In this document: in pieces, positions 1,192 through 35,494 of the stretch
Layout of the letters: each line of letters begins with the position of its first letter
How positions within the stretch are numbered: the first letter of the stretch is position 1
IMG/VR virus record: IMGVR_UViG_3300012942_000089
Span: 1 to 35,717 of that record
Length of the DNA stretch: 35,717 nucleotides
Direction: 5' to 3' (one strand)
From: a virus
Taxonomy: Duplodnaviria; Caudoviricetes
Made by a program: the position numbers and the translations under genes
Notes under the pieces: model-generated
Databases searched by the model: none
Told to the model about the DNA's origin: nothing
Seen by the model: only the letters and a program-made list of their open reading frames with translations

Positions 1192-1909
1192 TTTAACGAA
1201 GTTTGATGACAGATTTAAGGCACTCCTTGGCGTCAAATACAAGCTGGGCGCGAAAGATCCATATTTAGGCGCGCCGTCTTCGCAGATCGAATACCTGGAT
1301 TGCAGCGGTTTCACCCGTGATGAGATTTATAGCGCGGCTGGCGTTGTTATTCCTGATGGCTCCTATATCCAGCGTGAATACTTTGAAAAAGTACTTTCAC
1401 CTGTTCCTTATGGCCCGGCGCAAAATGATCTATTGATCTTCTTTCTGACCGCAGGAGTGAACGGCGTAGGAAGCGTGGGGCATGTGGGATTTGCCCGCAA
1501 CGGCGTCACCTACGAATGCTACGGCGGCCATGGTGTGGGATCACGTCCGTGGAATACGCCGGTATTGAAGGATCATGTCCACAAAGCATTTAGATTGCCT
1601 TTCAAAACCGCCGTCAAAGGCTATTCGCTTTTCGCGTCTGATGAACACCTGATGAAAGTACTTCCCGTCTACGACGGTCACGCCTACGTGGCGGCGCGCA
1701 CGTGGGCGGACTGGTTCAAACAGCAAGTTGCCTGGGATGCGCCAAAAGTACTTTTGAACGGCAACCCGCTCGACGGCGACGTGAAGCTGATCCCGGAAAA
1801 CGGGCGCAACGTCGCCTACATCCCGTTCACCACGGCGGCCGCCTTCACTGGCGTCAGCTACGTGGTGGATAACGCAAAGCATGAAATCCGGCTCAAGCCA
1901 GGTATGTGA
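1172..1909 (+). CDS. NlpC/P60 (C40) endolysin with C-terminal copper-amine-oxidase-N-like domain
   Basis: LDCSGF catalytic Cys and GHVG His motif; C-terminal ..AYVAAR..VAWD..AYIPF..VDNAKHEIRL pattern. Start 1172 (GGTGG RBS) preferred over 1133. Confidence 0.85.
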   Translation: MLPWQVDLTKFDDRFKALLGVKYKLGAKDPYLGAPSSQIEYLDCSGFTRDEIYSAAGVVIPDGSYIQREYFEKVLSPVPYGPAQNDLLIFFLTAGVNGVGSVGHVGFARNGVTYECYGGHGVGSRPWNTPVLKDHVHKAFRLPFKTAVKGYSLFASDEHLMKVLPVYDGHAYVAARTWADWFKQQVAWDAPKVLLNGNPLDGDVKLIPENGRNVAYIPFTTAAAFTGVSYVVDNAKHEIRLKPGM

Positions 1910-2442
1910 TCATGCGTTTCCTTATTGAAATATTGACACTCGCGATGTTATTTCTAATCTTCATCGCGTTGTGTTTCGATATTAATTTACATTTTCGTAA
2001 TGGAGAAAGTCTTATGTCAGTATTAGACCAAACAGCCGAGTTGCAGGAAGCAACTACCGAACTCACATCCGTCATCGCGGATGAAAAAGCGCAAGTGGCG
2101 CAAGCTATCAGTACGCTCAACGACAAGGTGTCCGACTTGGAAGCCGCCGCGCCGCCAGAAGTGGATTTGTCGCCGGAGATCGCCGCGGTGCGCAACGCTG
2201 CCGATGCAGTCCGCGCCATTTACGAGCCGCCGGCAACTGATGATAGCGCGCCGGCAGACGACGCAAGCACACCTGTTCCGGTCACCGCTGACCCTGTGGC
2301 CGATGATACGGATACCACCGCGCAAGCCGATTCTGGCAATAGTGCACCGACGGACGATTTAGAAACCGCCGATCCCACCGCTCCGGATACTCCGGAATCT
2401 CCCGCCACACCGGACGAACCGGACACGGGATTAGACGGGTAA
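1906..2442 (+). CDS. Lysis-cassette protein: N-terminal TM helix, coiled coil, acidic Pro/Asp/Thr tail (alternative start 2014)
   Basis: GTGA overlap with endolysin stop; hydrophobic N-terminus; second GGAG-ATG start at 2014. Confidence 0.6.
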   Translation: MIMRFLIEILTLAMLFLIFIALCFDINLHFRNGESLMSVLDQTAELQEATTELTSVIADEKAQVAQAISTLNDKVSDLEAAAPPEVDLSPEIAAVRNAADAVRAIYEPPATDDSAPADDASTPVPVTADPVADDTDTTAQADSGNSAPTDDLETADPTAPDTPESPATPDEPDTGLDG

Positions 2443-2466
2443 GTACTTCCTCCGAAAGTACTTTTG

Positions 2467-2502
2467 ACGGGCGCGCGTTCACTTATGGCGCGCGCCCGTT
2501 TT
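2467..2502 (+). terminator. Probable intrinsic terminator after the lysis genes
   Basis: 11-bp stem ACGGGCGCGCG (2467-2477) / CGCGCGCCCGT (2489-2499) followed by a short T run. Confidence 0.6.
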
Positions 2503-2517
2503 GTAAGAAAAGAAATT

Positions 2518-2601
2518 ATGGACCCGTTATTTCGATTCCTGACCGCGCTCACAATCTTCCTTTTTGTCGCCTATTTTGTCGGTAAAGAGGTAGTGTCATG
2601 A
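2518..2601 (+). CDS. 27-aa single-TM microprotein MDPLFRFLTALTIFLFVAYFVGKEVVS
   Basis: Below ORF-track cutoff; hydrophobic core; its TGA overlaps the next ATG (ATGA 2598-2601). Confidence 0.55.
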   Translation: MDPLFRFLTALTIFLFVAYFVGKEVVS

Positions 2602-2852
2602 CCACAAAAGTACTTTCAATGAAAATCAAATTGCCCGCGCACCGCGAAAATGCGCTTGACGACAAATTACTGAATGCGCCAGGCGAAGAATACTTTCCCG
2701 CGTATCTCAAAGAGCACCGGCCTAATCTGATAGATGACGGAGTATTCACCGGCGAATTGGCGGCAGATGATTTTGTCTCTGAAAGAACGGCGCGCTATTC
2801 CAATGTGCGACGGCGTAAGCAAAGCAAGCTAAAAAGGGCGGTGAGGGCGTGA
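2598..2852 (+). CDS. Hypothetical protein (84 aa, basic C-terminus)
   Basis: GAGG RBS; overlaps with neighbours at both ends. Confidence 0.6.
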   Translation: MTTKVLSMKIKLPAHRENALDDKLLNAPGEEYFPAYLKEHRPNLIDDGVFTGELAADDFVSERTARYSNVRRRKQSKLKRAVRA

Positions 2853-3187
2853 CTATCTGGGATGGTTTGTCGATATTTGGTTCATTATTGTCACTTGTTT
2901 TAGGTGGCTTATTAGCGGAGTGGAAAAGTGACATGGCCGCCATGCGCGACGAAATCAAAGAGCTCCGCGAAGAATGTAGAAAAAACGAAGCGCGCATCGA
3001 TGCTTATCAAAAAAACGAATATTTGACGAACCGCAAATTAGATCGCGTTATTGATTATTGTCGGATGCAAACACGTGAAATGCGGGACGTTTTGAGCATC
3101 AACAAAAAGGGGCAGGTACTTGCCCCGGAACACATTGAAAAACTGGAATCTTTGCCGACGATTGATGATGTTTTGAAGGAATTTTGA
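2849..3187 (+). CDS. Membrane-anchored coiled-coil protein (second holin/spanin-like candidate)
   Basis: N-terminal hydrophobic helix followed by a heptad-like charged region; GTGA coupling. Confidence 0.6.
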   Translation: MTIWDGLSIFGSLLSLVLGGLLAEWKSDMAAMRDEIKELREECRKNEARIDAYQKNEYLTNRKLDRVIDYCRMQTREMRDVLSINKKGQVLAPEHIEKLESLPTIDDVLKEF

Positions 3188-3188
3188 A

Positions 3189-3638
3189 ATGGCTAAAGAA
3201 ACTAACAAAATCGGCAAATTCCATTTTGATATAAACATCCCGGCGGAAGTATTACCAGCAATCAAAAAAGTACTTTTGCCGCTGGATTGGATGTTACCTG
3301 GCTGGGCGCAACATTGCTTTATCCATTATTGTATTGATGATGAGGACGGCCACACGGCCAGCGCTGATGTTAGTTATGAATATCGCTTTATTCACGTCAA
3401 TCTGTATCCGCAGTGGCTAACACTGGATGAGGAATACAGAATTGAAACTTTGGTTCACGAACTAATTCATTCCATGACGATGATTTTGTTTTCATATACA
3501 GAGCAAACCGTGCAGGCGCTTACTAAAGATCAAGAATTGTTAAAAGAAGCAATTTTAGAGGAAATGAAAAACCGGCATGAATCCATGACGCAGGATTTGA
3601 CGTGGGTTATCCGAGGTTTGATGAAGCAACATGGCTAA
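3189..3638 (+). CDS. HExxH zinc metallopeptidase-like protein
   Basis: ETLVHELIHS motif plus a downstream HE; AAGGA RBS. Confidence 0.7.
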   Translation: MAKETNKIGKFHFDINIPAEVLPAIKKVLLPLDWMLPGWAQHCFIHYCIDDEDGHTASADVSYEYRFIHVNLYPQWLTLDEEYRIETLVHELIHSMTMILFSYTEQTVQALTKDQELLKEAILEEMKNRHESMTQDLTWVIRGLMKQHG

Positions 3639-4233
3639 AACAGTAGCATCCGAACTCGCAAAATTATTAGAAGCCCCAGCACTGGATAAACAGTCGTTGG
3701 AGTTTGACGCGCCGCAACTTTGCGCTGTGACGGGCGAAACAATTACGGCTGGTTATCGCATCAAAGATGCCACAACATCCGCCACGAATGAGTTCATGGA
3801 CTTATTCCATGGAACGCCTGATGGATACATCAGTGAGGATGTGGCGCGATTGATGAAAGTCCAGCGCATCGGCAATGTGGCTATTCACAACGACATATTA
3901 CATCGTCCGATGATCTCTAACGAAAGCGCCAAGGATCAAGGCCGCGCGTGCTGGAGTGAATTAGTTGGCGATGAAGAATCCGGCGTCCTCCTGACGCAAA
4001 CTTTGAAGCATAAAATGGATGTTGCGGGATTAGGCAAATATACAAAAGGAGTGAAAGTCTCATTTGACACGAATTATGAAAAAGCCAGAACAAAGCTGGT
4101 GAACATTAAGGGCATATCGAGCAAAGCGAGTATGTGTCCTGTGATCATGGAAGGACACAGCACGGCAATTCAATTCGCGTGGGATGTGGGGATTGGTAAT
4201 TGCACCGGTTGCGGGTTTGGGGCGTTGAGGTAA
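3631..4233 (+). CDS. Chimeric Cas-derived protein: possible Csf1-like N-terminus fused to a Cas6 C-terminal half
   Basis: Ends in ..CPVIMEG..IQFAWDVGIGNCTGCGFGALR, an exact GhGxxxxxGhG Cas6 glycine loop at the C-terminus. N-terminal CAVTGETITAGY..WSELV resembles type IV Csf1 from recall (less certain). Confidence 0.7.
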   Translation: MAKTVASELAKLLEAPALDKQSLEFDAPQLCAVTGETITAGYRIKDATTSATNEFMDLFHGTPDGYISEDVARLMKVQRIGNVAIHNDILHRPMISNESAKDQGRACWSELVGDEESGVLLTQTLKHKMDVAGLGKYTKGVKVSFDTNYEKARTKLVNIKGISSKASMCPVIMEGHSTAIQFAWDVGIGNCTGCGFGALR

Positions 4234-4898
4234 TGAGTAAAGCAGAGCGCGCAGCGGTCGAAGATAACCAGGATTTAAAAATTTCACGTCCTTACCCGCC
4301 AAAGCAATTACTTGTGACATTGCCGGAGATTGAATTTCTGCCCGCGCCGGAAATTACGACCTGGATACGCGAAGTTTTACTAAACCCAGAAAGTCCTTTA
4401 TTCAACGAAGACCATAATCATTTGAATGAAGCAAAAATTGGCTGTCTGTGGACGAGCCAATATTATGCGAAGCATCAGCGCGAAGTGATGGGGCTGTGCG
4501 AAGTGCCGAACATCCAGGGCAATGCCTGGTTGAAGGGCAGGATGGAACAGCAGCTTGTCGGGTGGTTCGGGGACGTGCCGGACTTTGTTTTGACGTTCTA
4601 TGCGCCGTTCGCGAATGCTATTACGAACGCGGAGTGGTGCCGATTGGTGGAGCATGAGGTTTACCATTGTGGCCAGCAGTTAGATGATTACGGAATGCCG
4701 AAATTCACCAAGGAAGGCGCGCCTAAATTCGGGATTCGCGGGCATGATGTTGAAGAGTTTGTTGGTGTTGTCCGGCGCTACGGTCTGGGCGCGTGCCATG
4801 CCGGAGTGAGAGAATTTGTCGAGACGGCGAGCCAAGCGCCGGAGATAGCGGAGATTGATATTGCCAGCATGTGCGGGACGTGCTTAGCGAAAATTTAG
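4233..4898 (+). CDS. Putative phage metallopeptidase
   Basis: LVEHEVYHCGQ and GHDVEEFVGVVRRYG motifs typical of the phage metallopeptidase often found before terminase; TAATG coupling at 4231-4235. Confidence 0.85.
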   Translation: MSKAERAAVEDNQDLKISRPYPPKQLLVTLPEIEFLPAPEITTWIREVLLNPESPLFNEDHNHLNEAKIGCLWTSQYYAKHQREVMGLCEVPNIQGNAWLKGRMEQQLVGWFGDVPDFVLTFYAPFANAITNAEWCRLVEHEVYHCGQQLDDYGMPKFTKEGAPKFGIRGHDVEEFVGVVRRYGLGACHAGVREFVETASQAPEIAEIDIASMCGTCLAKI

Positions 4899-9102: not shown

Positions 9103-9870
9103 ATGTTCAGTCACATCTTCAGTCGTACCTACAGTCGTTTTACCCCAGTCGTATTTTTTGAAGCCGATGGCGTTCCCGCCGGAGGCGCAAGCCCACAGTC
9201 GGAAGATAAACCGTCGAACCCCACTAAAGCCGAAATTGAAAGCGTTGTTCAAAAGACGATCCAAAACGTGTTGAATTCGCAGCGTGTCGCAGGTGATACC
9301 AGCGCAGCTCTTGAAGTTCTTGCAGCAAAAGCGCTCAAGGAAGAAAAGCGCGCCAAAGACGCCGAGGCGAAGATCGGAACTATTCCCGAAGATGTCAAAG
9401 CAAAACTGGACGCCTTTGAAGCTCTTGGGACAGTCGAAGACATAACCAAGCGTCTTGAGAACGCTACAACACTGGAAGCCGAAAAGGCGCAACGCGAACT
9501 CACTGATGGATTCCGCAAAGCCGCGCAAGTGGCAGGCTATGACGCCGATGCGCTTTTGGAAGTCATTGGGCAGATTCCAAAATCTGTTATCGAGACCATC
9601 AAAAAAGATGGTAAGGATATTCAGATTGCAAAAGTACTTTCAGGTGATGATGACAAAGACGGCAAGTCTTTTGAGGAATCTATGAAAGAACGCTTCCCGA
9701 AAATCCATGACAGTTTGAAAGCGGACAATAAACATCGAGTGCAAGCGCCGGTAATGGGAGTGGGGAGCGGAACATCGCAGGTTAGCCAGGCGGATGCTTT
9801 CATAGCCCGAATTGAAAAACAGAAGGCGGAAAAGCGCAATCCTTTGATGCCGGTAGTGGATGCAAAATAA
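9103..9870 (+). CDS. Capsid scaffolding protein
   Basis: Charged, helical/coiled-coil, FFEADG..AGG N-terminus; lies upstream of the capsid genes. Confidence 0.7.
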   Translation: MFSHIFSRTYSRFTPVVFFEADGVPAGGASPQSEDKPSNPTKAEIESVVQKTIQNVLNSQRVAGDTSAALEVLAAKALKEEKRAKDAEAKIGTIPEDVKAKLDAFEALGTVEDITKRLENATTLEAEKAQRELTDGFRKAAQVAGYDADALLEVIGQIPKSVIETIKKDGKDIQIAKVLSGDDDKDGKSFEESMKERFPKIHDSLKADNKHRVQAPVMGVGSGTSQVSQADAFIARIEKQKAEKRNPLMPVVDAK

Positions 9871-23810: not shown

Positions 23811-24877
23811 AGACATGTATTAAATGCGGTTTTAGCTGCGCAAATGGATGTTTATTTGTAACAGTAAACGGCAAGTTGCTTTGCAAGAAATGCGCTGGCG
23901 CAGCGCAAAGGGAAGTACTGGCTGAAATTAACTATACACAGAAAGAATTGGAGCAAAAGGCTATTGAAAAGTGGCAGAATTTAAAGCCGGGCGGCACTGT
24001 CATTGTTAATAATTACGCATCGCTCAAACACGCTATGCGACGTTATGCTGATGCGAATAATTTAGCTATTCAAACGTTGCCAGATAACAAAGCGATGTTC
24101 CAAAAGTCGCTTCGCCCAACGAAATACGGACAAATTGCAGTGCAGAATCATGCTCACGGAATAGGCGATTCGATTACAGCCTTCTACGCCTGTTGTGGCA
24201 TTGCTGACGCGGGTTTTGAAGTGCATTTTTACGATGTTCATACCGACTGGCTGGCGCGCGCATTTTACCCGAACGTGTTTATCCATGACGCCGCTTTTGT
24301 TCCCGTGCCTGACAATGCTATTGATTTGAATGTCCGTTACAACGAACAAATACAACAAAGCTCATGCAGGAAACAGTGGTATTGCGACAATTTTAAATTA
24401 GCAAAAGGGATCAGTGAATTTGATGTTTTGCCGGTTGCACCTGATGTTAATTTGGATATTCGCAATAAGCGAAACGGACAGGATTACGTGGTGATTGCGC
24501 CGTGTTCCAATGATTCCGCACGGTTTTGGGATAAGTCAAAATGGGCGGAGGTTGCAGGTCTATTAAAAGAAAAGGGACTGAGTTGTGTAGCAATCGGTAA
24601 TTCAGATCAAGCTGATTTGATGGCGGATATTTTTAAGCCATGCGGGAATGTGGATCACCTGCACAACGCTTCGCCTGATGAGATAGCAAACTTGATGTTG
24701 CAAAGCCGTGGATTTATTGGTTTGGATTCCGGCATGACGCATTATGCTGGGTTATTGGGTATTAACGCTGTGGGTATTTCTGTGCAGTTCCCGACGTCGT
24801 TGCTGTGGGGGATGACAAGCATCAATGGCTATCGCGCTGATGTGACGGCGATGGAAATTGTGGAGGCTATTTTATGA
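23807..24877 (+). CDS. Glycosyltransferase family 9 (heptosyltransferase-like) with N-terminal Zn-ribbon
   Basis: GIGD, VVIAP......R.W...W, and FIGLDSGMTHYA..LG motifs of GT9; CxxC..CxxC N-terminus; ATGA overlap gives start 23807. Confidence 0.85.
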   Translation: MKTCIKCGFSCANGCLFVTVNGKLLCKKCAGAAQREVLAEINYTQKELEQKAIEKWQNLKPGGTVIVNNYASLKHAMRRYADANNLAIQTLPDNKAMFQKSLRPTKYGQIAVQNHAHGIGDSITAFYACCGIADAGFEVHFYDVHTDWLARAFYPNVFIHDAAFVPVPDNAIDLNVRYNEQIQQSSCRKQWYCDNFKLAKGISEFDVLPVAPDVNLDIRNKRNGQDYVVIAPCSNDSARFWDKSKWAEVAGLLKEKGLSCVAIGNSDQADLMADIFKPCGNVDHLHNASPDEIANLMLQSRGFIGLDSGMTHYAGLLGINAVGISVQFPTSLLWGMTSINGYRADVTAMEIVEAIL

Positions 24878-25034: not shown

Positions 25035-25061
25035 TGTATCGCAATTGTGTATACAATACAA
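25028..25061. promoter_or_regulatory. Overlapping divergent promoters with palindromic operator
   Basis: Plus: TTGACA 25028-33, 18 nt, TACAAT 25052-57. Minus: TTGTAT 25061-56, 17 nt, TACAAT 25038-33. Inverted repeat ATTGTAT (25033-39)/ATACAAT (25051-57). Confidence 0.7.
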
Positions 25062-25063
25062 GC

Positions 25064-28000
25064 ATGCAACGCCAACACCCGCTGGCTGCGTTGCTCGTAT
25101 TAACAATTATCGCTATCGGGGGCTGGGCTTACGTAACGCAGCCAGCCAACAAGCCCGCTCCCGCCAAAACTCAAACCGTCCCCAAAGCGCCATCAGCACT
25201 GCTGACGGATATGGAATCACAGGATCAAAGGGATGCTGCCAAAGCGCATCAGATGCCGTCGAAAATTCTTGCCGCCAAAATTGCCAAACAACTGAAAAAG
25301 CAGGGGGGCAACGATATGAGCGTTAAGATTAAACCAGGACAAAGTGCTGTTGTGAGGGTTGCATTTGTTGCAAATGCTCCAATGAGCACAATTGACCCCG
25401 ATCCATCTGATACTTATATAGTTCCATCAGCAGGATATTCTGGTAGCGCAGATGCAGGTAACGTAAATGGATCTACAACCGGAGGCGGTTGGCAAGCTGC
25501 TTGGACATCTATCAATGAAGGAGCAGGTGGAAGTGTAGATGTATTAATTAAAGTGCCTGAGAATGCAAGTGCTGGCGATTTTACCATAACACTTAATTCA
25601 TTAAATACTATCACTGAGGGAGAAACTCCTACTACAAAAAATGTTGACGTTTATCAAGTTGATTTCCAAGTCACCGGCCCTTTAACTGGCAGCGTAAACG
25701 TAAGCCAAGTCAGCGCAGCTGCAAATAAGGCGTGTGTTGATTTAAAAGCAGACACAGTCACCGATCAAAAGGTGACGTCCGCAGTCATTGACTGGGGCGA
25801 CGGTAATTCAACAACGGTTTCACCAACACCGAACGATCAACATTATATCGGCAGCGAATGTCACAACTACGGCGCGCCGGGCGAATATACGATCAGCGTC
25901 ACTTATAACGATGATGATTCCAATACGTTGACAGTTACTACCACTGCGAAAGTTGGATGTGTTTTAGCTTCTGGAATCTTTGTTCAATGCGATCCTTCTC
26001 GAATAGTGGAAAGCCCGCCTGATTCTGGGATTTATCTGCATTATTATAATGTATCGTTGGGCGCTTTAAGCGCACCTTCTGATTCAACGATATTTTGGAC
26101 GTGGAATCTACCAGATAATGCAACTGTCGTCGATGGCTCTTCGGATACCGGCGCTTTCGGCATCGGGAGCGCTGGAGCTAATTGGCCAAAAACTGTATTT
26201 CAGGTTCCCACACCCAGCCCGGATTGCAGCGGTGATTATGGAGGAATTGGTCTCACTGTCGGTTTAGGCGCACCGGCAGGAGCATCGTATAGCGGTTGCT
26301 CGGTTGACCTCGCTGATGATTCTGTTGATCACATTGCTGATGTTGAATGGCTTCCAGATGCAGGAGAGATAACTTGGATATTGCCTGATGGCAGTACTAT
26401 CACAGAAGAACAATATCTTGCCAGCCAATATTATTATTACGCCACATCTCCAACCGACGAAATACCTGTCCCAACGGGTTGTTTGCTGGACAGTTCGCAC
26501 CTCAACGTAGATTACCCTTCATTACCCGCTGGCTATGATGCCAGTGTGGACGTGCAGCAACAACACAATGATTTATCGTGGCGTGATGTGGGCACGATCA
26601 CCGCCACCGGTTCTGTCACAATTGACGCTGCTCAACCACAAATATTTCGCTTCGTGGCTTACAAAGGCGACACGGCGGTTTACTCGTTGGCCATTACGAT
26701 CAACGAAGAATGCAGCGAGGGGGAAGGATGCCCTGATGGATACCATGATGACGGCACGGGCAATTGCCTCAATGATGACGACGGCGCGACGGCGTGCGCC
26801 ACAGGCTATCACTGGAGCGGCACAGCCTGCATCTTCAATACTCCGGAAAGCGCTATTCCTGCACCCGATGGCTGTGTGAATTCCGTTGCTGATGACGGCA
26901 CGGCAACGCTGGTATTTCAGCCGCTGACTGGTGTCCCCAGCGACATCACAAGCGCTGTATTACAGCACTGGAACGGTGTGTCTTACGATGACGTCAAAAC
27001 GCTCACGCTGATCGAAGCTGCGACGATATTTATTTATAATCTCAATCCTGCAACGATATTGCAATTTCGCTGGAAACTTCCCACGAATGACGCAGGGTTC
27101 CAGTATTTGAGCGACGCTTTCACCTTCACGCAAAGCTGCTGCGATAGTGGCGGTGGTGAATTAACACCAGATGCACCGGATGCGCCGACCGTCGTTAAAT
27201 CGTGCGCCGATGGCACTGTGACGGTTTCAGTGGTATTGCCGGACGGCGCGACAAGCATTGAGATTGCCCGCGACGATGCGCCGGATACAATGATTGCACC
27301 TTTAACCGCCAGCGGTGATTTTGTGGATTCCAGTGTCGCGGATTTCGGCACTTACAAATATCGTGCGCGCGCAAAGAATTTATTCCCTTCTGACTGGAGT
27401 GACTGGAGCGATAAAGTCACCTTTGAGAGTTCATCGCTCACTTTTACTTGGCTTTCCCCCGCCGCCGATTACGAAGCGCACGGAAATGTACTTTTAAAGT
27501 TCAGTGTTTCAGGAACGGTAACAGATTTAGCTTTATACGTTGGCGGCAAGCTGATAACACCAGCCCTAACAACCAAAGGCGGCGGGATTTATACGCTATC
27601 CTATGACACGCGCCGCGCTGTGCAGGGCGATGCCACAATTGAGATACGTGGCACCGGTTCAGATGGTTGCCCGGCCCGCGCGTCCCTTGACGTGACGTTC
27701 GACAACACCCGAAGCGATGGAATTTTATACAGAAAGTTTCTCACGCGAGATGTGGGGGACGGATTCCAAACCAACCGCCTTGCGGCTAATGTCGTGATCG
27801 GCGAACTGGATGATGATCCTACAGCGAGATTCTGGGGGCAGATAGCCATAGCCGACGGAACGGTGGATGCTCAAATAGCAGACGACACAAGCGCCACAGA
27901 CGCGCAGGCGGCATTCGATCTGATGCAGCCGTTCCCGTTAAACACAGTTAAACCAATTCCGGCTTTGGGCGGCAATCCGGGTGGCACTATTTTGGGCAAC

Positions 28001-29080
28001 GCGCAAACAATCATTGCGCCAAAGCAAAGACACCGCGTGTTTATCCGCCAGGAACGGCAGGAATGGTTTTTAGGCTATGACACGGGAAGCGCCACGATTC
28101 CTAAAATCCGGGAGGTGGAAGCGGGAAAGTACTTTATCTTTTCACAAACCCCGGACAAGGCGTTTGTATTCCAAAATGATGCGTTAACTTTGGACGTGGA
28201 CTTTGAAACGACCGAAGACGCCAGCGACGTGACCGACGCGGCGATGGTGGGGAAAAAAACCTACTTCCTCAATGATGGAATGCTGATAGTTTATGTTTCC
28301 GGCAATCGCACGTTGGAATTTACGATCCGGCGCGAGGAACGTACAGCGCAATTCATTGAGGGCGTGGGGAATTCGCTTTACGCAATCCTGGTGGATGAAG
28401 ATTTGGAAACAGCCCAGACACTTTGCGTCTCACTGACCGGCGATGCGGCGATGGATCAATGGACACTGGATGACGTGGCCACGCTCGTTTGGTGCAGCGG
28501 CAATACTTCCACGAACTTGTTTATCGCGTGCGGCAAAAAACTGTATTTGAGCGTTGGCGGAGCGACGCCGGTATTGGTGGGAACATTCGATAGCAATATC
28601 ACTGCGATTTGCGAATCGGCCGTTGGGCTGGCTGACGGCAGCGTAAAAGTACTTTTGAACGCACAATTGGGGACATGGGCGAACGCGGTAGAAAGCGGCG
28701 CGCGGTCGATTTCCGCATTGGCGAATTGGTATGGCTCGTTGGAGTTCATCAACCTGATGTGGGGCAACGCCGACGAGGCAACATTATACGGGCAGGGTAA
28801 TGATCATGCTTATGATGTGCATCGCGTATTACCTGCAATCGGTGATGTGACGCCGACCGGCATTACCGCATTAGGACGCTATTTTGTGCCTACGGAAGGA
28901 TCACAACCCAATCCCAATAACGGCTATCAGGCGGGCGATGAGCGTATTCTTGTCGGGACCGCTGGGGGGTTGTTGCTCACACTGATGGTGGCGCGCAAAA
29001 CTAACGCCAGCGCGTGGGCATTCACCACCATCGACAGCATTAACTGCGCGGAAATTCCCGGCGCGGTTCCGGCCACATAA
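25064..29080 (+). CDS. Large multidomain adhesin/tail protein: N-terminal TM, PKD, Cys-rich, FN3/Ig-like and probable beta-propeller domains
   Basis: IDWGDG..HNY..PGEYTISVT (PKD); CPDGYH..GNC/CATGYHW...AC; PDAP..FVD......YKYRARA..SDWS (FN3); hydrophobic LAALLVLTIIAIGGWAYV. Confidence 0.8.
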   Translation: MQRQHPLAALLVLTIIAIGGWAYVTQPANKPAPAKTQTVPKAPSALLTDMESQDQRDAAKAHQMPSKILAAKIAKQLKKQGGNDMSVKIKPGQSAVVRVAFVANAPMSTIDPDPSDTYIVPSAGYSGSADAGNVNGSTTGGGWQAAWTSINEGAGGSVDVLIKVPENASAGDFTITLNSLNTITEGETPTTKNVDVYQVDFQVTGPLTGSVNVSQVSAAANKACVDLKADTVTDQKVTSAVIDWGDGNSTTVSPTPNDQHYIGSECHNYGAPGEYTISVTYNDDDSNTLTVTTTAKVGCVLASGIFVQCDPSRIVESPPDSGIYLHYYNVSLGALSAPSDSTIFWTWNLPDNATVVDGSSDTGAFGIGSAGANWPKTVFQVPTPSPDCSGDYGGIGLTVGLGAPAGASYSGCSVDLADDSVDHIADVEWLPDAGEITWILPDGSTITEEQYLASQYYYYATSPTDEIPVPTGCLLDSSHLNVDYPSLPAGYDASVDVQQQHNDLSWRDVGTITATGSVTIDAAQPQIFRFVAYKGDTAVYSLAITINEECSEGEGCPDGYHDDGTGNCLNDDDGATACATGYHWSGTACIFNTPESAIPAPDGCVNSVADDGTATLVFQPLTGVPSDITSAVLQHWNGVSYDDVKTLTLIEAATIFIYNLNPATILQFRWKLPTNDAGFQYLSDAFTFTQSCCDSGGGELTPDAPDAPTVVKSCADGTVTVSVVLPDGATSIEIARDDAPDTMIAPLTASGDFVDSSVADFGTYKYRARAKNLFPSDWSDWSDKVTFESSSLTFTWLSPAADYEAHGNVLLKFSVSGTVTDLALYVGGKLITPALTTKGGGIYTLSYDTRRAVQGDATIEIRGTGSDGCPARASLDVTFDNTRSDGILYRKFLTRDVGDGFQTNRLAANVVIGELDDDPTARFWGQIAIADGTVDAQIADDTSATDAQAAFDLMQPFPLNTVKPIPALGGNPGGTILGNAQTIIAPKQRHRVFIRQERQEWFLGYDTGSATIPKIREVEAGKYFIFSQTPDKAFVFQNDALTLDVDFETTEDASDVTDAAMVGKKTYFLNDGMLIVYVSGNRTLEFTIRREERTAQFIEGVGNSLYAILVDEDLETAQTLCVSLTGDAAMDQWTLDDVATLVWCSGNTSTNLFIACGKKLYLSVGGATPVLVGTFDSNITAICESAVGLADGSVKVLLNAQLGTWANAVESGARSISALANWYGSLEFINLMWGNADEATLYGQGNDHAYDVHRVLPAIGDVTPTGITALGRYFVPTEGSQPNPNNGYQAGDERILVGTAGGLLLTLMVARKTNASAWAFTTIDSINCAEIPGAVPAT

Positions 29081-29106
29081 CTAACAGTTATACTTAAGAG
29101 GTATCT

Positions 29107-30294
29107 ATGAGGACATATTATAGGCAAAATGATCAATTTCCCACAATCAGCGTTTTAGTTTCAGCTGATGATTTCGTCGCCGGGCAAACGTGGCGCGGCG
29201 TATTGCCATTACTGGGCATGACGTTCGACAACCGCACGACGCAAAACGCGTATATTTCTGCTGTGATCGCAGCGGCATTTGGCGGCGAGGATTTGCCGAA
29301 CGGCGTTACTTGTCGTTTATTAGCCGATACAGCAGCGGCAGATTATGCAGAAGGTTTTGATCCACGCCAAACGCCATTGGGAGCTGTTTCATTTGAGCTG
29401 GCATTTGATAATGATTTCGCGGGAATGACGGATGTGCCGTTGATTTTTATGGTGGCGGGATTAGCCACGGACGCGCCCGCGGATGCTGATATTACATTAC
29501 CAACAATCACGACGAACACCACGGCAATCACACTGAAAGATTACCAGGGCGGCGATTTGCCGCATGGGTTCTATTCAGAAGTTGTTCCCGAACTGAGCGA
29601 CGGTAAAAGCGCTTACCAGATCGCCGTGGATAATGGCTTTGAGGGTGATGAAACCGCGTGGCTGGCTTCTCTAAAAGGAGAAACTGGAGATACTGGACCC
29701 GCCGGGGCAGCAGGCGCGAATGGGACTGATGGCGCGCCTGGAGACGACGGTGTGGGTGTTCCCGTCGGCGGCACAACAGGGCAGGTTTTAGCGAAAATCG
29801 ACGGCACTGATTACAATACGGAATGGGTTGATCCCCCTGCGGGCGGAGGTGGTGATTCAGGACTGGAATTGGGTGAAACATCCAGCACAGCTTATCGCGG
29901 GGATCGTGGCAAAACTGCTTACGATCATTCACAGCTTACCAGCGGCAATCCGCATAACGTTACAAAAAGTGACGTTGGGCTTTCAAATGTCACAAATACC
30001 GCGCAATTGACAACAGACCAATTAGATACCGACGATACGCTTTCTGCAGATAGCGATTCAAAAATCCCTTCGCAGAAGGCAGTTAAAGCATACGTGGACG
30101 CGAACGGAGGCGACGGAAGTGGCGTATTCACCGCTATAGCCTCTCAAGCCGAAGCCGAAGCTGGAACCGATAACACCAAAGGCATGACGCCGTTGCGGAC
30201 TGCGCAGGCTATTGCAGCGCTTGGGACAGATGGCAATGGCAGTTCAGTAGCACTCGATGCGCAAACCGCAATTTTTGCACAAGTATTTAATTAA
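29107..30294 (+). CDS. Collagen-repeat tail fibre protein
   Basis: (Gxy)n GETGDTGPAGAAGANGTDGAPGDDG; fibre motifs GKSAYQIAV.NGF.G....WLASLKG, NPHNVTKSDVGLSNV, SQKAVKAYVD, ASQAEAEAGTDNTKGMTPLRT. Confidence 0.88.
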   Translation: MRTYYRQNDQFPTISVLVSADDFVAGQTWRGVLPLLGMTFDNRTTQNAYISAVIAAAFGGEDLPNGVTCRLLADTAAADYAEGFDPRQTPLGAVSFELAFDNDFAGMTDVPLIFMVAGLATDAPADADITLPTITTNTTAITLKDYQGGDLPHGFYSEVVPELSDGKSAYQIAVDNGFEGDETAWLASLKGETGDTGPAGAAGANGTDGAPGDDGVGVPVGGTTGQVLAKIDGTDYNTEWVDPPAGGGGDSGLELGETSSTAYRGDRGKTAYDHSQLTSGNPHNVTKSDVGLSNVTNTAQLTTDQLDTDDTLSADSDSKIPSQKAVKAYVDANGGDGSGVFTAIASQAEAEAGTDNTKGMTPLRTAQAIAALGTDGNGSSVALDAQTAIFAQVFN

Positions 30295-30306
30295 AGAGGT
30301 TTTATT

Positions 30307-30663
30307 ATGGCAGCAGGCGCGATTTCAAAAGTACTTTTATCTGGTGGAACGAATGGGCGTAATGTTAAGATCGCCGCGACAAGTTCACCAGGCACAACAA
30401 TTCACACAGCTGATGCAAGCGCTTACGATGAGGTTTGGTTATGGGCGTGTAACACTAGCAGCTCAGATGTTTTGTTGACAGTTCAGTTAGGCGGAACAAG
30501 TTCGCCTGACGATGACATTGTACTAGTAATTCCCGCGCAAAGCGGTTATTTCTTGGTGGTTCCAGGGCTGCCTTTGACTGGATCAGTAGTGGTCAAAGCA
30601 TTTGCGGCTACGGCAAACGTTATCAATATAAATGGGTATGTAAATCGAATTACAATGAGTTAA
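30307..30663 (+). CDS. Small virion/fibre-associated beta-sandwich protein
   Basis: GAGG RBS; DEVWLWACN motif; follows the fibre gene. Confidence 0.65.
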   Translation: MAAGAISKVLLSGGTNGRNVKIAATSSPGTTIHTADASAYDEVWLWACNTSSSDVLLTVQLGGTSSPDDDIVLVIPAQSGYFLVVPGLPLTGSVVVKAFAATANVININGYVNRITMS

Positions 30664-30666
30664 ATT

Positions 30667-31485
30667 ATGGCAACTACACCGAATATTTCAGCGCCTTTTA
30701 TATGTTCAGCTTCGCGTAACAGGCGTGATTTGATGATCCAACGTTATCAAAAATTACCACTGCCAGCGTATAAACCGGCAGAGGGTGCAGCGATAAACGG
30801 AGCTTCGATCTCAAGCGGATTAGTATTATCTTGCCTCTTCAACGAAGGAACAGGAACATCAATTGCTGATAATACCTCTTCGCCGCTCATTGGAACTCTG
30901 AGCGCCGGTTCGATCTGGGGAACTGATGACACCTATACCAATGTACTGAATTTCGACGGCAGCGCTTATGGGGCTATCCCTCATGACTCTAAGATCAGTA
31001 TCGAAACATACACAATCTCATTAGCGTTTAAAACTACATCAACAACAAATTATGGAGTTTTAGTCGATAAATCATCATCTACTAAATCGACTTACAAAAT
31101 GTTTTTTGGATATCCATCTGCAGGTAATCTTACATTCGATGTTTACGATGGATCGAACGACGCTCTTTACACAGCTGATTCAACGTATAACGACGATGAT
31201 TGGCACAAGTTGATTTTTTCACGCGAGCAAGGCGGCGACATGAATATCTATGTTGATGGAGTGCTGCAAGGTCAAGGTGACGACACGACGACATTGGGCG
31301 CTACGGTGAATACCGAAGACTTAGTAATAGCGAGAGAAGCGGGGACAGGACGGCGATACACCGGATCATTCGCTTATTTGAACATGTGGAACCGCGTCCT
31401 TTCCGGCGCGCCCGGAAGCGTAGGGAGTACGGCCACCGGCGAAATAGCCGCGATCACAGCAGATGAGTTTTTGATGTATCGGTAA
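30667..31485 (+). CDS. LamG/concanavalin A-like lectin domain protein (receptor-binding candidate)
   Basis: FNEGTGT...D, LNFDG, NDDDWH, IYVDGVL, WNRVLS motifs. Confidence 0.85.
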   Translation: MATTPNISAPFICSASRNRRDLMIQRYQKLPLPAYKPAEGAAINGASISSGLVLSCLFNEGTGTSIADNTSSPLIGTLSAGSIWGTDDTYTNVLNFDGSAYGAIPHDSKISIETYTISLAFKTTSTTNYGVLVDKSSSTKSTYKMFFGYPSAGNLTFDVYDGSNDALYTADSTYNDDDWHKLIFSREQGGDMNIYVDGVLQGQGDDTTTLGATVNTEDLVIAREAGTGRRYTGSFAYLNMWNRVLSGAPGSVGSTATGEIAAITADEFLMYR

Positions 31486-31539
31486 AAGTACTTTTGGAGG
31501 GCGCGCCGCATATCTTGGAGGACGTGACGGCGCGCTGAT

Positions 31540-31626
31540 GAAAAAGAAGTTCGCTGTTACGAACGCTTTTATTGTAGCACAGATTTGAGGGGAATAAGAC
31601 CATATTGCCAGCATCGGTAATATGGT
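31540..31626. terminator. Hairpins between convergent operons (probable bidirectional termination)
   Basis: AAAAG-AA-GTTCG..CGAAC-G-CTTTT (about 31541-31570) and ACCATATTGCC..GGTAATATGGT (31599-31626). Confidence 0.5.
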
Positions 31627-31643
31627 TTCATTCTAATTTAGAG

Positions 31644-31871
31644 CTAAGACAGAACGTTTCCTTCATTGTCTTCATCTAAAACTACCATCATATTCTCAAT
31701 CTCCTCTTTTGTGCCAACACTTAACACGGATTGTAATACCCGGGGATAATCATGCCGCTCATAATGAGTTACCAAACCTTCGCCAAAAGTGTCTAACACA
31801 ACATAAATCTCCCCATCGGGTTTGAACCTGAAGCGCGTTCCAAGTGGCAATTCTTTAAATCTTTTAATCAT
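31644..31871 (-). CDS. Hypothetical protein (75 aa)
   Basis: GGAG RBS; ATGA overlap with upstream gene. Confidence 0.7.
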   Translation of the reverse strand: MIKRFKELPLGTRFRFKPDGEIYVVLDTFGEGLVTHYERHDYPRVLQSVLSVGTKEEIENMMVVLDEDNEGNVLS

Positions 31872-32110
31872 GGATTTTCCACATCTCCAAAAGTCAGTCG
31901 CCCTTCCTCAAGCAACAACTGAAAATAATAATCCGATTCTATTTGATAGCTCCATCGTTGCTGACGCTGGCTCCACGTCTTAAACACAATGTATTCATCA
32001 TCAACCACCGCGCGGATATGCACGATGCGGTTATTGATGTTGTTTTCGTTATAAAATATGCGAAGTTTTTTGCCTGGCTGGAGCAGGTCTTTTAGTGAGT
32101 TATCCGCCAT
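31868..32110 (-). CDS. Hypothetical protein (80 aa, MADNSL...)
   Basis: GGAG RBS before ATG 32110; the longer start in the track overlaps the HTH gene. Confidence 0.7.
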   Translation of the reverse strand: MADNSLKDLLQPGKKLRIFYNENNINNRIVHIRAVVDDEYIVFKTWSQRQQRWSYQIESDYYFQLLLEEGRLTFGDVENP

Positions 32111-32130
32111 TTTTCCACATCTCCAAAAGT
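31875..32130. repeat. 20-bp direct repeat TTTTCCACATCTCCAAAAGT at 31875-31894 and 32111-32130
   Basis: Exact match read directly; contains the minus-strand RBS of two consecutive genes. Confidence 0.9.
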
Positions 32131-32285
32131 ACTTTTTGATACGGCTTAATCGGCACCGTCGTGCCTGATTTCCAGCGCCAAACTTGCATTTGGGTGACGC
32201 CAATTTCTTCTGCTAAGGCACGCTGGGATTTGTTTTTTAGGAGGTCGGTTAGGATGGCCGACCAGTCGTTTTCTTGGTTTATCAT
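32100..32285 (-). CDS. Cro/XRE-type HTH protein (Aca-like position)
   Basis: SQRALAEEIGVTQMQVWRWKSG...P HTH motif; TAATG-coupled to the AcrVA2-like gene. Confidence 0.85.
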   Translation of the reverse strand: MINQENDWSAILTDLLKNKSQRALAEEIGVTQMQVWRWKSGTTVPIKPYQKVLLEMWKNGG

Positions 32286-33397
32286 TATTTCACCTTATGT
32301 AATACAGGATCAACAGCATCCCAATTATCAGCATTCACTAATCCAGGTGGTATCCATTTCACGATACGCACAGCCCTTTCAGGATTCTTTCTGATGCCCT
32401 CACCTGTTAAATATGTGTTCCAGTGTGCGCGCCGGATATGCGCGGCTTTTTTGTTGCTACCGCCTGCTCCTTGTCCACCGCCTTCTTTTTGCATCGCCAA
32501 CGCGCCCCGGATTGCAGCGCCGACGCGGTATCCTGTTTCCCACACTACTTCACTGCTGGCGGGAATAAACGTATTATTTCCGCGCTTTTTGAGATACACC
32601 GGCTCTGGATACATTGGCTTATCGCGCTTCCTGTTTTGTAAATCACGGTTGGCACAACACAAATAAGTTACCAATGATACGATGGGCGCTGCCATGCGGT
32701 GGGCTATTTCTTCTAATTTATCTGCTGGCATTTCATCACTTTTAAGATATGATTCCATGATCCCTAATAGTGAAGCGCCCTCTTTTAGATTGATCGGGAC
32801 CGGGGTTAAAAAATCTTCGCCCTTGCTGGTAGCGTCCAGTGTGATGAGAAGACAATGCTGGAATACTTGGTCGCCGTTAGGCGCTATTTGTTCTGGTTGG
32901 AGTTGTGCGAAAAATCCGTGGACATAAAACACGTCGCTGTCATCAGGAAATTCCAGCGGTTCCCCATCCACCGATGTTTCAACGTAAACACACCATTCCG
33001 GCAGATGCTCCAACACCTGCACCGGCAGCACGTCCTCGGCTTTTGTGGAGTTGACGATATAGTCAAATGTTGTAGGGTCGAAACGATAAACGCCCTTTCC
33101 CAGGCTCCAGGCCATGACGGCAAAGGCGTTTATAAAATTTGTGTATTCCTCATTCGTTTTGATTTTACGCCCCGCTAACTGGTCAACCGCCAGCGTTGCC
33201 AGTGGGAACGGCATGAAACACCACAAAGGCCAAAGCACGCCATCGACCATCGTTTTATCATCAAAATCTGGATCATTGGCACGTGCGTCCAACACGGAAT
33301 ACACAGCTTCAAATTCCGCTCGATATTGTTCTTTGATGTAGTAACACCATTGAACCGGGCGAGAGAAGTTTGATTCCAGTTTCATTCGCTTCGACAC
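32285..33397 (-). CDS. acrVA2: AcrVA2/FinQ-family protein (alternative start 33385)
   Basis: Ordered family motifs AW...GVYRFD, LPEWCVYVE, GFFA, YLC, G.RVG..IR, HIRRAHW..Y..G.G, KW.PP..VN, recognised from recall of AcrVA2. Confidence 0.78.
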   Translation of the reverse strand: MSKRMKLESNFSRPVQWCYYIKEQYRAEFEAVYSVLDARANDPDFDDKTMVDGVLWPLWCFMPFPLATLAVDQLAGRKIKTNEEYTNFINAFAVMAWSLGKGVYRFDPTTFDYIVNSTKAEDVLPVQVLEHLPEWCVYVETSVDGEPLEFPDDSDVFYVHGFFAQLQPEQIAPNGDQVFQHCLLITLDATSKGEDFLTPVPINLKEGASLLGIMESYLKSDEMPADKLEEIAHRMAAPIVSLVTYLCCANRDLQNRKRDKPMYPEPVYLKKRGNNTFIPASSEVVWETGYRVGAAIRGALAMQKEGGGQGAGGSNKKAAHIRRAHWNTYLTGEGIRKNPERAVRIVKWIPPGLVNADNWDAVDPVLHKVK

Positions 33398-33846
33398 ACC
33401 ACCCCAAGTTTTTTTAACCCCTCCGCATCAGGCTCAATCCCTTGCCCCTTCTCAGACGCCGCCCAGAACCTCTCCGCCACGTCCAGGACTGCCCATTTCG
33501 CCGCCACGGAAAGAGCTTCAAAGCGTTTAATCAGCTCTTTTCCTTGTTCTACAGATAATCCCTTTTGCGCCGCGGCATTATTCAGATTGGTGTTATCGAC
33601 AATGTTCACACCGATATGCTGGATGTATTCCATGTCTACTAAGACGCCATTGAAGCTATCTAATATCACCTGCCACTCCGCCTCGCTAAAAACGTTTTCC
33701 AGCGCGCGGGTTTCGATTGCCAGAATCCCAAAGGCGCGCTCCGCCTGCGCGCGGATGACCGCACCTAGCGGGACATCTGGATTTGCGCGCGATTCCGCTT
33801 GTTTTTGTAATTCAGTTGCAAGATAAAGAGATGTACGTATTGGCAT
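33382..33846 (-). CDS. Hypothetical protein, possible N-terminal RHH-like regulator
   Basis: AAAGGA RBS before ATG 33846 (MPIRTSLYL...); FSEAEW..I.D..NG and AVLDVAERFW motifs. Confidence 0.7.
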   Translation of the reverse strand: MPIRTSLYLATELQKQAESRANPDVPLGAVIRAQAERAFGILAIETRALENVFSEAEWQVILDSFNGVLVDMEYIQHIGVNIVDNTNLNNAAAQKGLSVEQGKELIKRFEALSVAAKWAVLDVAERFWAASEKGQGIEPDAEGLKKLGVVCRSE

Positions 33847-33905
33847 TACAAAATTCCTTTTCGCGTGGTATTGTATGCGCGCCCCACGGTTGATTGAAAG
33901 TACTT

Positions 33906-34202
33906 TTAGATTTGCTCCAGACTCCAAAAAAAGTCAACTGTATCCTGTGTAATTTCTATCATACAGTTTGTCATCTGATCGATTTTAGATTGGGTTAACT
34001 CCTCTTCTCCAATATCGTTTGATGAACCGTCACCGCTGTTATAAAAGTACTTTCCGTCTTTTTGGGTGACTTCGATCCAACGCCCCTCATCTCCATCATA
34101 ATAAAACGTGACGGCGTCTCCGTTTCCCATGACATCCAAAACGTCCTGGAAGTCCACAATTCCCTTGTTGTCCTCAACCAGCTCTAACTTGAATTCACTC
34201 AT
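33906..34202 (-). CDS. Small acidic protein (98 aa), first gene of leftward operon; Acr-like properties
   Basis: GGAGA RBS before ATG 34202; very Asp/Glu-rich. Confidence 0.75.
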   Translation of the reverse strand: MSEFKLELVEDNKGIVDFQDVLDVMGNGDAVTFYYDGDEGRWIEVTQKDGKYFYNSGDGSSNDIGEEELTQSKIDQMTNCMIEITQDTVDFFWSLEQI

Positions 34203-34300
34203 CTGACTCTCCAAAAAATAAAAATTTGTAAACTTAACTGTGACTCTCCAGAGTCCAGGTCAGCCCTCGTCCGGCTGGCCTGTTTTTGCTTACGTAGATT

Positions 34301-34331
34301 ATTTTACCGCATTGTGTTCATTTGTGAATAC
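34301..34331 (-). promoter_or_regulatory. Candidate promoter and operator of leftward operon
   Basis: Minus strand TTCACA (34328-23), 16 nt, TAAAAT (34306-01); imperfect inverted repeat GTGTTCA-N4-TGAATAC (34314-34331) over the -35; AT-rich upstream. Confidence 0.5.
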
Positions 34332-34453
34332 CTTATTTAATAATTACATTTATTAGTAGAAGTGAAATAATTAACCATCATTTACAACTCAAAATGTCGC
34401 AAAAATGAGCGGCAAGTGGTTTTGTGTCTTGGGTTTGGGGGACAAAAGTACTT

Positions 34454-35494
34454 TTAACGCTTCAAAATCCCTGCCAGGGGGCTACTCGCACGGTGCTGGT
34501 TCTCTAAATCGGCGCTTGCCAGTTTCGCGTACGTTTGAACCATTTCCAGCTTTTCATGTCCCAACATCAATTGTAAAGCCAGCAAATTGCCTCCACGTCG
34601 CAAAAACTCAATAGCAAAAGTGTGGCGACAGGTATGAGGTGAAACGCGGACGTCGGTAATTCCCGTCATCGTTTCCAAGCGCTCAAAAAATTGCAAGAGG
34701 CCGGATCGCGTAAGAGGTTTCCGGCTTCCACGCAAGCCGCGATTTCCGGTGAAAAGAAAATCGTCTGGTTTCACATCATCGTCTCGCAAATGCCGCCAAA
34801 TGGCGCGTGTGGCGTCAGTGTCAAAAGGCACGGTTCGCACTTTATCGCCTTTCCCGCGCACAGTCACATTACCTAAATTTTTATTCATTGTCAGATCGCG
34901 CAAACGTATTCCGCAAAGCTCGCTGGCGCGGATTCCGGTGTCAATCATGAGCGACACAATAGCAACGTCGCGGGCGGGCGCTGTGGTGCGCCTGGCGGCG
35001 TCAAGGAGTAGCAAAACGTGGTCTGGTGTGAACGGGCGGACGTTGGGTTTTTTGGGCTTTGGAACGGTAATTCCCTCGACCGGTGAATCTGCCAGGATAC
35101 CTTCGTTGACGAGCCAACGGAAATAGGTTCGCAGATTGATGAAATATACTTCCACAGCACGGACAGAAAGTTGCTTACTGCGACGTGGGTTTCCCCAACG
35201 ACCGGCGGGCAAATTATGAGAATTGGTCAAATACCCAATATAGGCTTTGATGTCGTAGGGAGTTATTTCGGTTTTACTGGTTTCGTTGAGCCACCAAATA
35301 AACCGCTCCAACGCTAAAGTCTTAATCTCAATCGTGCGCGGGGACATGCGATTATACTCCGCGTCAACAATCCAGTCTTTGACGTGATATATAACTTTTT
35401 GTGTTGTGACAGTACTTTCTGGTGCGATACGTTGACCAGCAACGAGGCGAAACGGCTGCCTCTGATTCTTCCAAACAGGCGGTGTAACTTGCAT
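34454..35494 (-). CDS. int: Tyrosine recombinase / phage integrase
   Basis: TGIRASEL (R), GKGDK (K), HTCRH (HxxR), LGH and Y catalytic residues; SAM-like N domain; GGAG RBS supports ATG 35494. Confidence 0.93.
   Translation of the reverse strand: MQVTPPVWKNQRQPFRLVAGQRIAPESTVTTQKVIYHVKDWIVDAEYNRMSPRTIEIKTLALERFIWWLNETSKTEITPYDIKAYIGYLTNSHNLPAGRWGNPRRSKQLSVRAVEVYFINLRTYFRWLVNEGILADSPVEGITVPKPKKPNVRPFTPDHVLLLLDAARRTTAPARDVAIVSLMIDTGIRASELCGIRLRDLTMNKNLGNVTVRGKGDKVRTVPFDTDATRAIWRHLRDDDVKPDDFLFTGNRGLRGSRKPLTRSGLLQFFERLETMTGITDVRVSPHTCRHTFAIEFLRRGGNLLALQLMLGHEKLEMVQTYAKLASADLENQHRASSPLAGILKR

Follow-up and report, generated by a model that had tools for sequence, protein, structure and literature searches.

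A palindrome repeated through a prophage

The window analysed here, positions 1 to 35,717 of IMG/VR record IMGVR_UViG_3300012942_000089, encodes a temperate phage, whose genes include those for lysis, head, tail, and integrase, and has a tRNA-Pro(TGG) gene at its end. It is a prophage integrated at tRNA-Pro, and the 3′ ~49 bases of the tRNA (35595-35643) form a high-depth branch point that is likely the att core. The palindrome AAAGTACTTT occurs in 24 exact copies between positions 1388 and 34454 of this 35.7-kb window; 12 of the 24 are the full 12-mer AAAAGTACTTTT and 21 fit RAAAGTACTTTY, which are the counts given in an earlier note on this DNA. The palindrome is a genome-wide signature of the likely host lineage and is not specific to the phage. 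The copies and the integration features are as follows, with minus strand indicated.

1388-1397, AAAGTACTTT copy in the NlpC/P60 gene (1172-1909), read as KVL
1655-1664, one-mismatch copy, GTAC core unaltered
1745-1754, 12-mer copy in the NlpC/P60 gene, KVL
2455-2464, copy, intergenic, with an 8-mer nearby at 2441
2607-2616, copy in open reading frame (ORF) 2598-2852, KVL
3267-3276, 12-mer copy in ORF 3189-3638, KVL
9631-9640, copy in ORF 9103-9870, KVL
12790-12799, 12-mer copy in ORF 12628-13104, KVL
13573-13582, 12-mer copy overlapping the stop codon of 13118-13573
14786-14795, one-mismatch copy in the tape-measure gene
14887-14896, copy in the tape-measure gene (14722-16941), KVL
17492-17501, one-mismatch copy
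18472-18481, 12-mer copy in ORF 18063-20555, STF
19006-19015, copy in ORF 18063-20555, STF
19288-19297, one-mismatch copy
21167-21176, 12-mer copy in ORF 20785-21663, STF
22435-22444, copy in ORF 21660-23810, STF
22605-22614, 12-mer copy in ORF 21660-23810, KVL
23301-23310, copy in ORF 21660-23810, KVL
23585-23594, copy in ORF 21660-23810, KYF
28126-28135, copy in ORF 25061-29080, KYF
28646-28655, 12-mer copy in ORF 25061-29080, KVL
30328-30337, 12-mer copy in ORF 30307-30663, KVL
31485-31494, 12-mer copy overlapping the stop codon of 30667-31485
32126-32135, 12-mer copy upstream of minus-strand ORF 31868-32113, or inside it with a TTG start (31868-32203)
33897-33906, copy adjoining the stop codon of minus-strand ORF 33906-34202
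34044-34053, copy in minus-strand ORF 33906-34202, KYF
34445-34454, 12-mer copy adjoining the integrase stop codon
34454-35494, minus strand, tyrosine integrase; best named relatives in Abditibacteriaceae/Armatimonadota, 41-44% identity
35409-35418, one-mismatch copy in the integrase gene
35597-35670, minus strand, tRNA-Pro(TGG)

Dinucleotide shuffles of the window contain a mean of 0.01 copies and at most 1 (n = 100). Based on the 40 genes called in this analysis, 18 of the 24 copies are fully intragenic (KVL 11, STF 4, and KYF 3), and shuffling of synonymous codons leaves a mean of 0.24 in-gene copies and a maximum of 3 (n = 2000), so the enrichment survives both nulls. The earlier note counted 19 copies in genes, with KVL 12 times; the nineteenth, at 32126, needs a TTG start. 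It also described the copies as read on both strands; of the 18 copies within genes, only one falls in a minus-strand gene. Four of the six copies not wholly in genes adjoin stop codons. KVL occurs 12 times in the phage proteome against 3.0 expected, its reverse LVK occurs once, and AGTACT encodes all 12 of the KVL tripeptides. For this reason we conclude that the motif has shaped the phage proteins and not the proteins the motif, in agreement with the earlier statement that protein sequence does not explain it.

Four of the near-copies proposed earlier do have a single mismatch, and they start at 1655, 17492, 19288, and 35409. The sequence at 2441 is only the 8-mer and that at 21151 only the 6-mer, and 4390, 14786, and 27485 were absent from the list. 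Copies are randomly spaced along the prophage, with one gap of 6.4 kb between 10-mers. A second word, GGCGCGCC, is present in 8 scattered copies where 2.1 are expected, 3 of them immediately beside a copy of the palindrome. An assembly artefact is excluded because independent assemblies contain the identical word. One contig of sequencing run X1, the only run found to contain the window, spans 28000-35624 with zero differences; this run is possibly the source of the window and thus not independent.

The probable host lineage

We scanned metagenomes with the orphan methyltransferase described below and analysed the best 80 of 206 loci; here we call palindromes that differ in their arms dialects. 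The window's own dialect is present in 7 of the 80, at 1.42 copies per kb over 61 kb. These host-like contigs have a GC content of 48.6% (48.8% in the window), and the two longest encode housekeeping genes (dapF, argH, and purM) and DUF1559 genes. Their ArgH is 67-73% identical to that of genomes G001, G048, and G117 and 54% identical to that of another class. In a methyltransferase tree (46 of 47 rows kept), six of the seven contigs form one clade with support of 100. We infer that the seven contigs represent the host lineage of the prophage, and the integrase relatives point to an Abditibacteriaceae host. The motif is about half as dense in the prophage (24 in 35.7 kb) as in the host-like contigs (87 in 61.4 kb, p = 0.0008).

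The earlier note had proposed a DNA-level signal that is either host-wide, like HIP1 (highly iterated palindrome 1) and the DNA uptake sequence (DUS), or phage-specific, as an operator, stoperator, or packaging signal. The first branch is supported, as the word fills Abditibacteriales contigs, where it is one of several dialects; the second is not supported, the bacterial contigs being denser in the word than the phage. A paired-motif genome scan covered 120 of ~780 stretches (10 of 64 parts), and comparisons are otherwise within this phylum. The scan matched G001, an Abditibacteriota bacterium, twice (1987 AAAGTACTTT versus 1 control), and a Capsulimonadaceae genome has 6 versus 6. Apart from G001, none of 401 genomes of the phylum has more than 46 copies of AAAGTACTTT. 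Among viral contigs, paired-motif scans (45, 10, and 9 loci) gave a sole carrier contig, matched twice: an unrelated second phage with 15 copies in 17 kb (L040). When viral contigs were scanned for the TCGA dialect, 6 loci matched, among them one weak candidate (L423), and searches with the capsid and integrase found no close phage relatives among the viral contigs.

A family of GTAC palindromes

Seven of the 31 genomes of the class (G001, G021, G048, G117, G126, G162, and G253) carry a GTAC-centred palindrome. The arms around the core are species-specific (TCGA, GCAA, CAAA, CG, or a 26-bp form), as determined from 5-150 kb of sequence sampled in each genome. G048, G162, and G253 are enriched in TCGAGTACTCGA, G117 in GCAAGTACTTGC, G001 in CAAAGTACTTTG, and G126 in CGAGTACTCG. 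G021 has a 26-bp dyad in which two GTAC, 14 bases apart, flank GAATTC (1378 GTAC-N14-GTAC versus 51 control). One metagenome locus (L352) has this architecture with different arms, and other metagenome loci contain more dialects. The 26-bp dialects look as if the short form had received an insert of 14 bp and a second GTAC.

Whole-genome AGTACT counts are 2813-4733 (0.75-1.2 per kb) in six of the 31 genomes, 1-33 in 14, 48-285 in eight, and 441-1094 in three outgroup genomes. The density is 0.75-1.7 per kb in all carriers and both phages, whichever dialect they have, and among the 401 phylum genomes, read by eye, none besides the carriers exceeds ~0.35 per kb. Six sampled low-count genomes contain 1 GTAC where 161 are expected. 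Carriers are interspersed among non-carriers in a quickly built RpoB tree (29 rows).

Several observations on AGTACT and GTAC stand apart from the dialects. Samples of two GTAC-free genomes, G085 and G135 (L240, L241, and L244), are enriched in a repeated non-palindromic word around CAGCCACG, which could be a REP (repetitive extragenic palindromic) element, an array, or a replacement signal. Outside the class, at least 16 Armatimonadota genomes (including G010, G026, G040, G138, G174, and G183) have three or fewer AGTACT. Four AGTACT-free genomes outside the class (among loci L545-L568) almost wholly lack several 4-bp palindromes; because these are missing together, we set the four genomes apart as general avoidance. 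G354 (L544, L552, L556, L563, and L567) has 1221 AGTACT versus 211 control, with no fixed arms in 17 kb, and GATC, GGCC, and AGCT are nearly missing from it. Five large viral contigs of 94-378 kb (L334, L336, L571, L573, and L574) have 41-61 AGTACT per 20 kb versus 9-16 control. They share the 6-bp core, at 2-3 per kb, but the two examined are without fixed long arms, unlike the dialects.

Origin, retention, and spacing of sites

When rpoB, comEC, and the gene for the methyltransferase are aligned by codon, sites in the parts of the alignments examined occupy lineage-specific positions and were created in place by substitution. The creating changes are synonymous where the sequence is conserved and change the amino acid where it is variable; sites in gapped comEC loops are uninformative. 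In the comparison of G048 with G162 or G253 (76-77% identity), 12 and 8 of 24 sites can be aligned; 8 and 7 of these retain the core, against a background of 27-28% for all 6-mers, although the numbers are small and the motifs themselves may have anchored the alignment. G048 has 350 perfect sites in 480 kb and 110 that are one base off, only 5 of the latter within GTAC. Sites with two perfect arms outnumber those with one by 350 to 41 in G048, 66 to 5 in G117, and 57 to 4 in the host-like contigs. The palindromes thus form a family that is host-wide, has species-specific arms, arises by point substitution, is conserved, and needs both arms as well as the core. Beyond the consensus, covariation between the arms is near independence. 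Both arms are needed while the arms do not covary, which suggests that the reader is a dimeric sequence-reading protein and not a hairpin; an origin by hairpin or template switching was dropped on the same covariation result.

The chromosome of G048, the best-sampled genome, contains 4150 AGTACT, and 24 blocks spread around it hold 14-26 for every 20 kb. The coefficient of variation of the gaps is 0.65 versus 0.97 ± 0.04, and short gaps are depleted (6.7% versus 19.6% under 200 bp). Two 16S genes have zero sites. G048, G162, and G253 also have families of REP-like hairpin repeats in common (L319: 13450-13660, 4985-5095, 10015-10155, and 15025-15112).

Chromosome cores have a single dialect each. 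Islands with metal-efflux and helicase genes in G117, G230, and G126 combine several dialects, among them exact halves of the 26-bp forms. Three island-like contigs, each of which has its own copy of the methyltransferase as well as a TolC-like and a YdjM gene, contain 37 AGTACT in 8.7 kb; 30 of these have both arms in a known dialect versus ~29% by chance, in a loose classification in which half of the 30 are hybrids. Stretches of 20 kb in two carrier assemblies (G001:C11 and G117:C3) are site-free, which speaks against sites being strictly required, but they may be mis-binned.

The orphan methyltransferase and candidate partners

An orphan beta-class N6/N4 methyltransferase (DPPY motif, ~255 amino acids) is common to the five carriers tested, with 66-80% identity. 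The gene is in 22 of the 31 class genomes, including all seven carriers, and in none of the 401 phylum genomes outside the class at E ≤ 1e-55. Abditibacterium utsteinense also encodes a homologue (P0139). The likely target of the predicted enzyme is the GTAC core. After 20 motif-bearing loci and 18 loci under 5 kb were set aside from the 80 metagenome loci, GTAC is the rarest 4-mer in the remaining 42, with an observed/expected (o/e) ratio of 0.34 and 36 of 42 below 0.6. Control loci with the scan motif masked have a GTAC o/e of 0.85, with 6 of 74 below 0.6. The 42 loci are not independent, since many belong to one clade.

Homologues of the enzyme in phages and plasmids, at 28-36% identity, do not indicate its specificity. 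An AlphaFold model (mean pLDDT 69, poor in the recognition region) was not used. A GTWWAC specificity among the solved relatives, with the PDB identity, is given in PMC11380664. The gene has no conserved neighbor in the carriers and no accompanying nuclease. In three nearly GTAC-free genomes, a HARE-HTH-Mrr nuclease gene lies immediately upstream of it (L298:2276-3070 on the minus strand, L296, and L300), and the two could form a methylate-then-cut pair; the nuclease was rejected as a partner of the motif, being orthologous only in these three genomes. The G153 methyltransferase (L282) groups with those of the carriers and RpoB places G153 among the GTAC-free genomes; this conflict suggests that the gene was transferred into G153.

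ComEC is encoded by all seven carriers and 30 of 31 class genomes, ComEA by six of seven and 29 of 31, and MutS by five of five carriers tested; the presence of these three does not follow the motif, and they were rejected as its partners. MutH (PF02976) is absent from the five carriers, with a positive control in E. coli. The R.PabI glycosylase of PabI-type GTAC restriction-modification (PF09522) had no match in the 31 class genomes, with a control that was silent too. Neither these two nor ComP had matches that followed the motif. The comEA and comEC genes of G097 are truncated, comEC of G274 is split, and mutS of G117 is split over two frames, possibly by a sequencing frameshift.

Explanations for the palindrome

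We favor, with confidence that stands at an even balance, a self-DNA mark of the HIP1 or DUS kind that is raised by biased uptake or recombination and passively gained by the prophage. The orphan methyltransferase would methylate the GTAC core, and a reader, probably dimeric, would bind the core and both arms and bias uptake or recombination in natural transformation. Biased uptake would drive copies up to about one per kb, with a resident prophage gaining them passively. A shift in the arm preference of the reader may start a new dialect, and islands that move between species may gather several. Lineages that lost the reader would have lost sites and then GTAC itself, under the cost of methylated GTAC. 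Such a drive explains the dialects, the even spacing, the slow gain by the prophage, and the polyglot islands.

Our confidence is no higher because we found no reader and because nearly every genome of the class has competence genes, which therefore do not separate carriers from non-carriers; ComP (PF16732) was found in none of the five carriers, with a control that was also silent. Several further points weigh against an uptake mark. The host of the prophage is inferred rather than observed, known uptake sequences are directional whereas the GTAC family is palindromic, and repair could produce most of the same patterns. Even spacing is clear in G048 only (p = 0.03 in G001 and 0.07 in the host-like contigs; not significant in G117, G126, and the phages). 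Fifteen of the 24 non-carriers, most of them nearly GTAC-free, have the methyltransferase as well (broken in two), so the enzyme is not sufficient, and at least 16 genomes outside the class are without AGTACT and without the enzyme. Its nearest solved relative, recognition region included, is M.RsrI, followed by MboIIA and M.BceJIV. The RsrI site is GAATTC, which does not follow the enzyme (0.86-0.87 versus 0.66) but centers the long dialects.

A methyl-directed repair ratchet after the model of Elhai is possible, though we consider it rather improbable. An analogue of MutH would nick opposite methylated GTAC with the right arms, so that site-creating mutations are fixed until saturation near one per kb, and all DNA replicating in the host, phage included, would gain sites. 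The convergence of carriers and both phages on 0.75-1.7 AGTACT per kb is at the level predicted (PMC4390886), and the depletion of short gaps, the location of near-misses in the arms, and the presence of MutS in the five carriers tested and of the methyltransferase in all seven agree with it. It is opposed by the missing MutH, by a two-armed specificity of 12-26 bp that is long for strand discrimination, by the rarity of one-armed intermediates, and by the half density of a prophage replicated by the same machinery. Less probable still is a missing-self password, by which a cytoplasmic defense or a Chi-like recombination machine spares DNA with a methylated palindrome within a few kb; phages and islands would mimic the palindrome, and broad-range islands would carry several passwords and their own methylase. 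Two unrelated phages do have the dialect, the three island-like contigs do combine a methyltransferase with arms of known dialects, and fast dialect turnover suits an arms race. However, sites are fewer in the phage than in host-like DNA, randomly spaced and with the 6.4-kb gap, two carrier assemblies include the site-free stretches (if correctly binned), and no nuclease accompanies the methyltransferase in carriers.

We think it quite unlikely that the palindrome is a nucleoid-organising site, bound every kb by a sequence-specific chromosome protein as proposed for the periodicity of HIP1 (argued in PMC5861425). Dyad symmetry, the need for both arms, and even spacing would fit, but thousands of copies with no regional bias would not, and neither total loss in close sister lineages nor mixed-dialect islands is predicted. 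A phage-specific operator or packaging signal, or the footprint of an inserting element (REP or MITE, miniature inverted-repeat transposable element), is highly improbable and largely refuted: contigs with bacterial housekeeping genes are denser in the word than the phage, and no indels accompany the creation of sites in rpoB and in the gene for the methyltransferase, even if the 26-bp dialects, with their apparent insert and duplicated GTAC, have the look of an insertion. We also put forward, tentatively and as a doubtful proposal, a broader species password. One mobile methyltransferase would mark GTAC throughout the order, the arms would be set for each species by a dimeric reader that evolves fast, mobile DNA would enter with several passwords and a methylase, and lineages without a reader would have erased GTAC, which may serve them as a tag of non-self DNA.

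Relation to known systems

Three kinds of genome-wide signal with about one copy per kb are established, namely the DUS of Neisseriaceae, the uptake signal sequence (USS) of Pasteurellaceae, and HIP1 of cyanobacteria, and the origin of HIP1 is still debated after 30 years. The GTAC family probably works like HIP1 and DUS and is a member of neither. Like HIP1, it is a conserved palindrome at about one per kb that lies within genes in all frames, has near-misses at outer positions and a link to an orphan methyltransferase, and has a mechanism contested among transformation, repair, and nucleoid roles. Unlike HIP1, it has a GTAC core, is AT-rich, occurs in a different phylum, and is 10-26 bp long (6-8 in HIP1); its core is fixed with species-specific arms, sister lineages have purged the core, and the enzyme is of the beta-class N6/N4 type instead of Dam-like and C5. 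The HIP1 word GCGATCGC is absent from the window and occurs once in 61 kb of host-like contigs, once in 480 kb of G048, and 11 times in 144 kb of G001. HIP1-type methyltransferases are each in one of five carriers (PF02086, Dam-like; PF00145, C5). HIP1 increases transformation, and the gain depends on methylation (10.1101/2024.09.10.611283; PMC13756078).

The resemblance to DUS and USS includes a density of about one per kb, species dialects around a common core, an even spread (clear in G048 only), lower abundance in newly acquired DNA and rRNA, accumulation by temperate phages, and some mobile elements that combine dialects. The differences are the self-complementary two-armed motif, the apparent methylase link, and the lack of a ComP match (control silent), and a role in uptake is suggested by analogy. 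Known DUS or USS words number zero in the window and host-like contigs. Phage HP1, counted for comparison with the prophage, has 17 USS in 32.4 kb. Published work describes DUS dialects that vary by species and include dyad pairs (PMC3630211), even USS spacing as the expected outcome of uptake drive (PMC7811141), Pasteurellaceae prophages that accumulate USS, some of them bilingual (PMC6776037), and integrative and conjugative elements marked by dialect (PMC7371117).

Dyads of 12-16 bp are also found in the SlmA-binding site (SBS), the Noc-binding site, matS, and parS, and the SBS has GAGTACTC in common with two dialects. SlmA, Noc, and MatP sites exist in tens of copies with a regional bias on the chromosome, unlike the thousands of unbiased copies here, and the analogy with SlmA, Noc, and matS drawn in the earlier note fails on copy number and chromosome distribution. 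Exact SBS (the word as given there) and matS words are absent from the 738 kb examined.

No description of AAAGTACTTT or of an iterated palindrome in Abditibacteria was found among the matches listed for the main texts of open papers, in searches that also covered GTAC avoidance and orphan GTAC methyltransferases; the highly iterated palindromes listed there have a cyanobacterial context. The family is an independent case with a built-in natural experiment, as close relatives have different dialects, none, or an erased core. Phages and islands record the hosts that they have passed through, and, in a group of which little has been cultured, the dialect can show to which host species a phage, plasmid, or contig belongs.

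Other genes of the prophage

Three further genes of the prophage have matches of note. An ORF on the plus strand before the terminase (3631-4233) has a weak C-terminal match to Cas6 (PF01881, E 6e-7; TIGR01877 below cut-off). A minus-strand gene (32285-33397) encodes a phrog_6160 protein with the motif HIRRAHW, which may resemble the AcrVA2/FinQ family. Within the tail module, the plus-strand gene at 23807-24877 is like a Family 9 glycosyltransferase.

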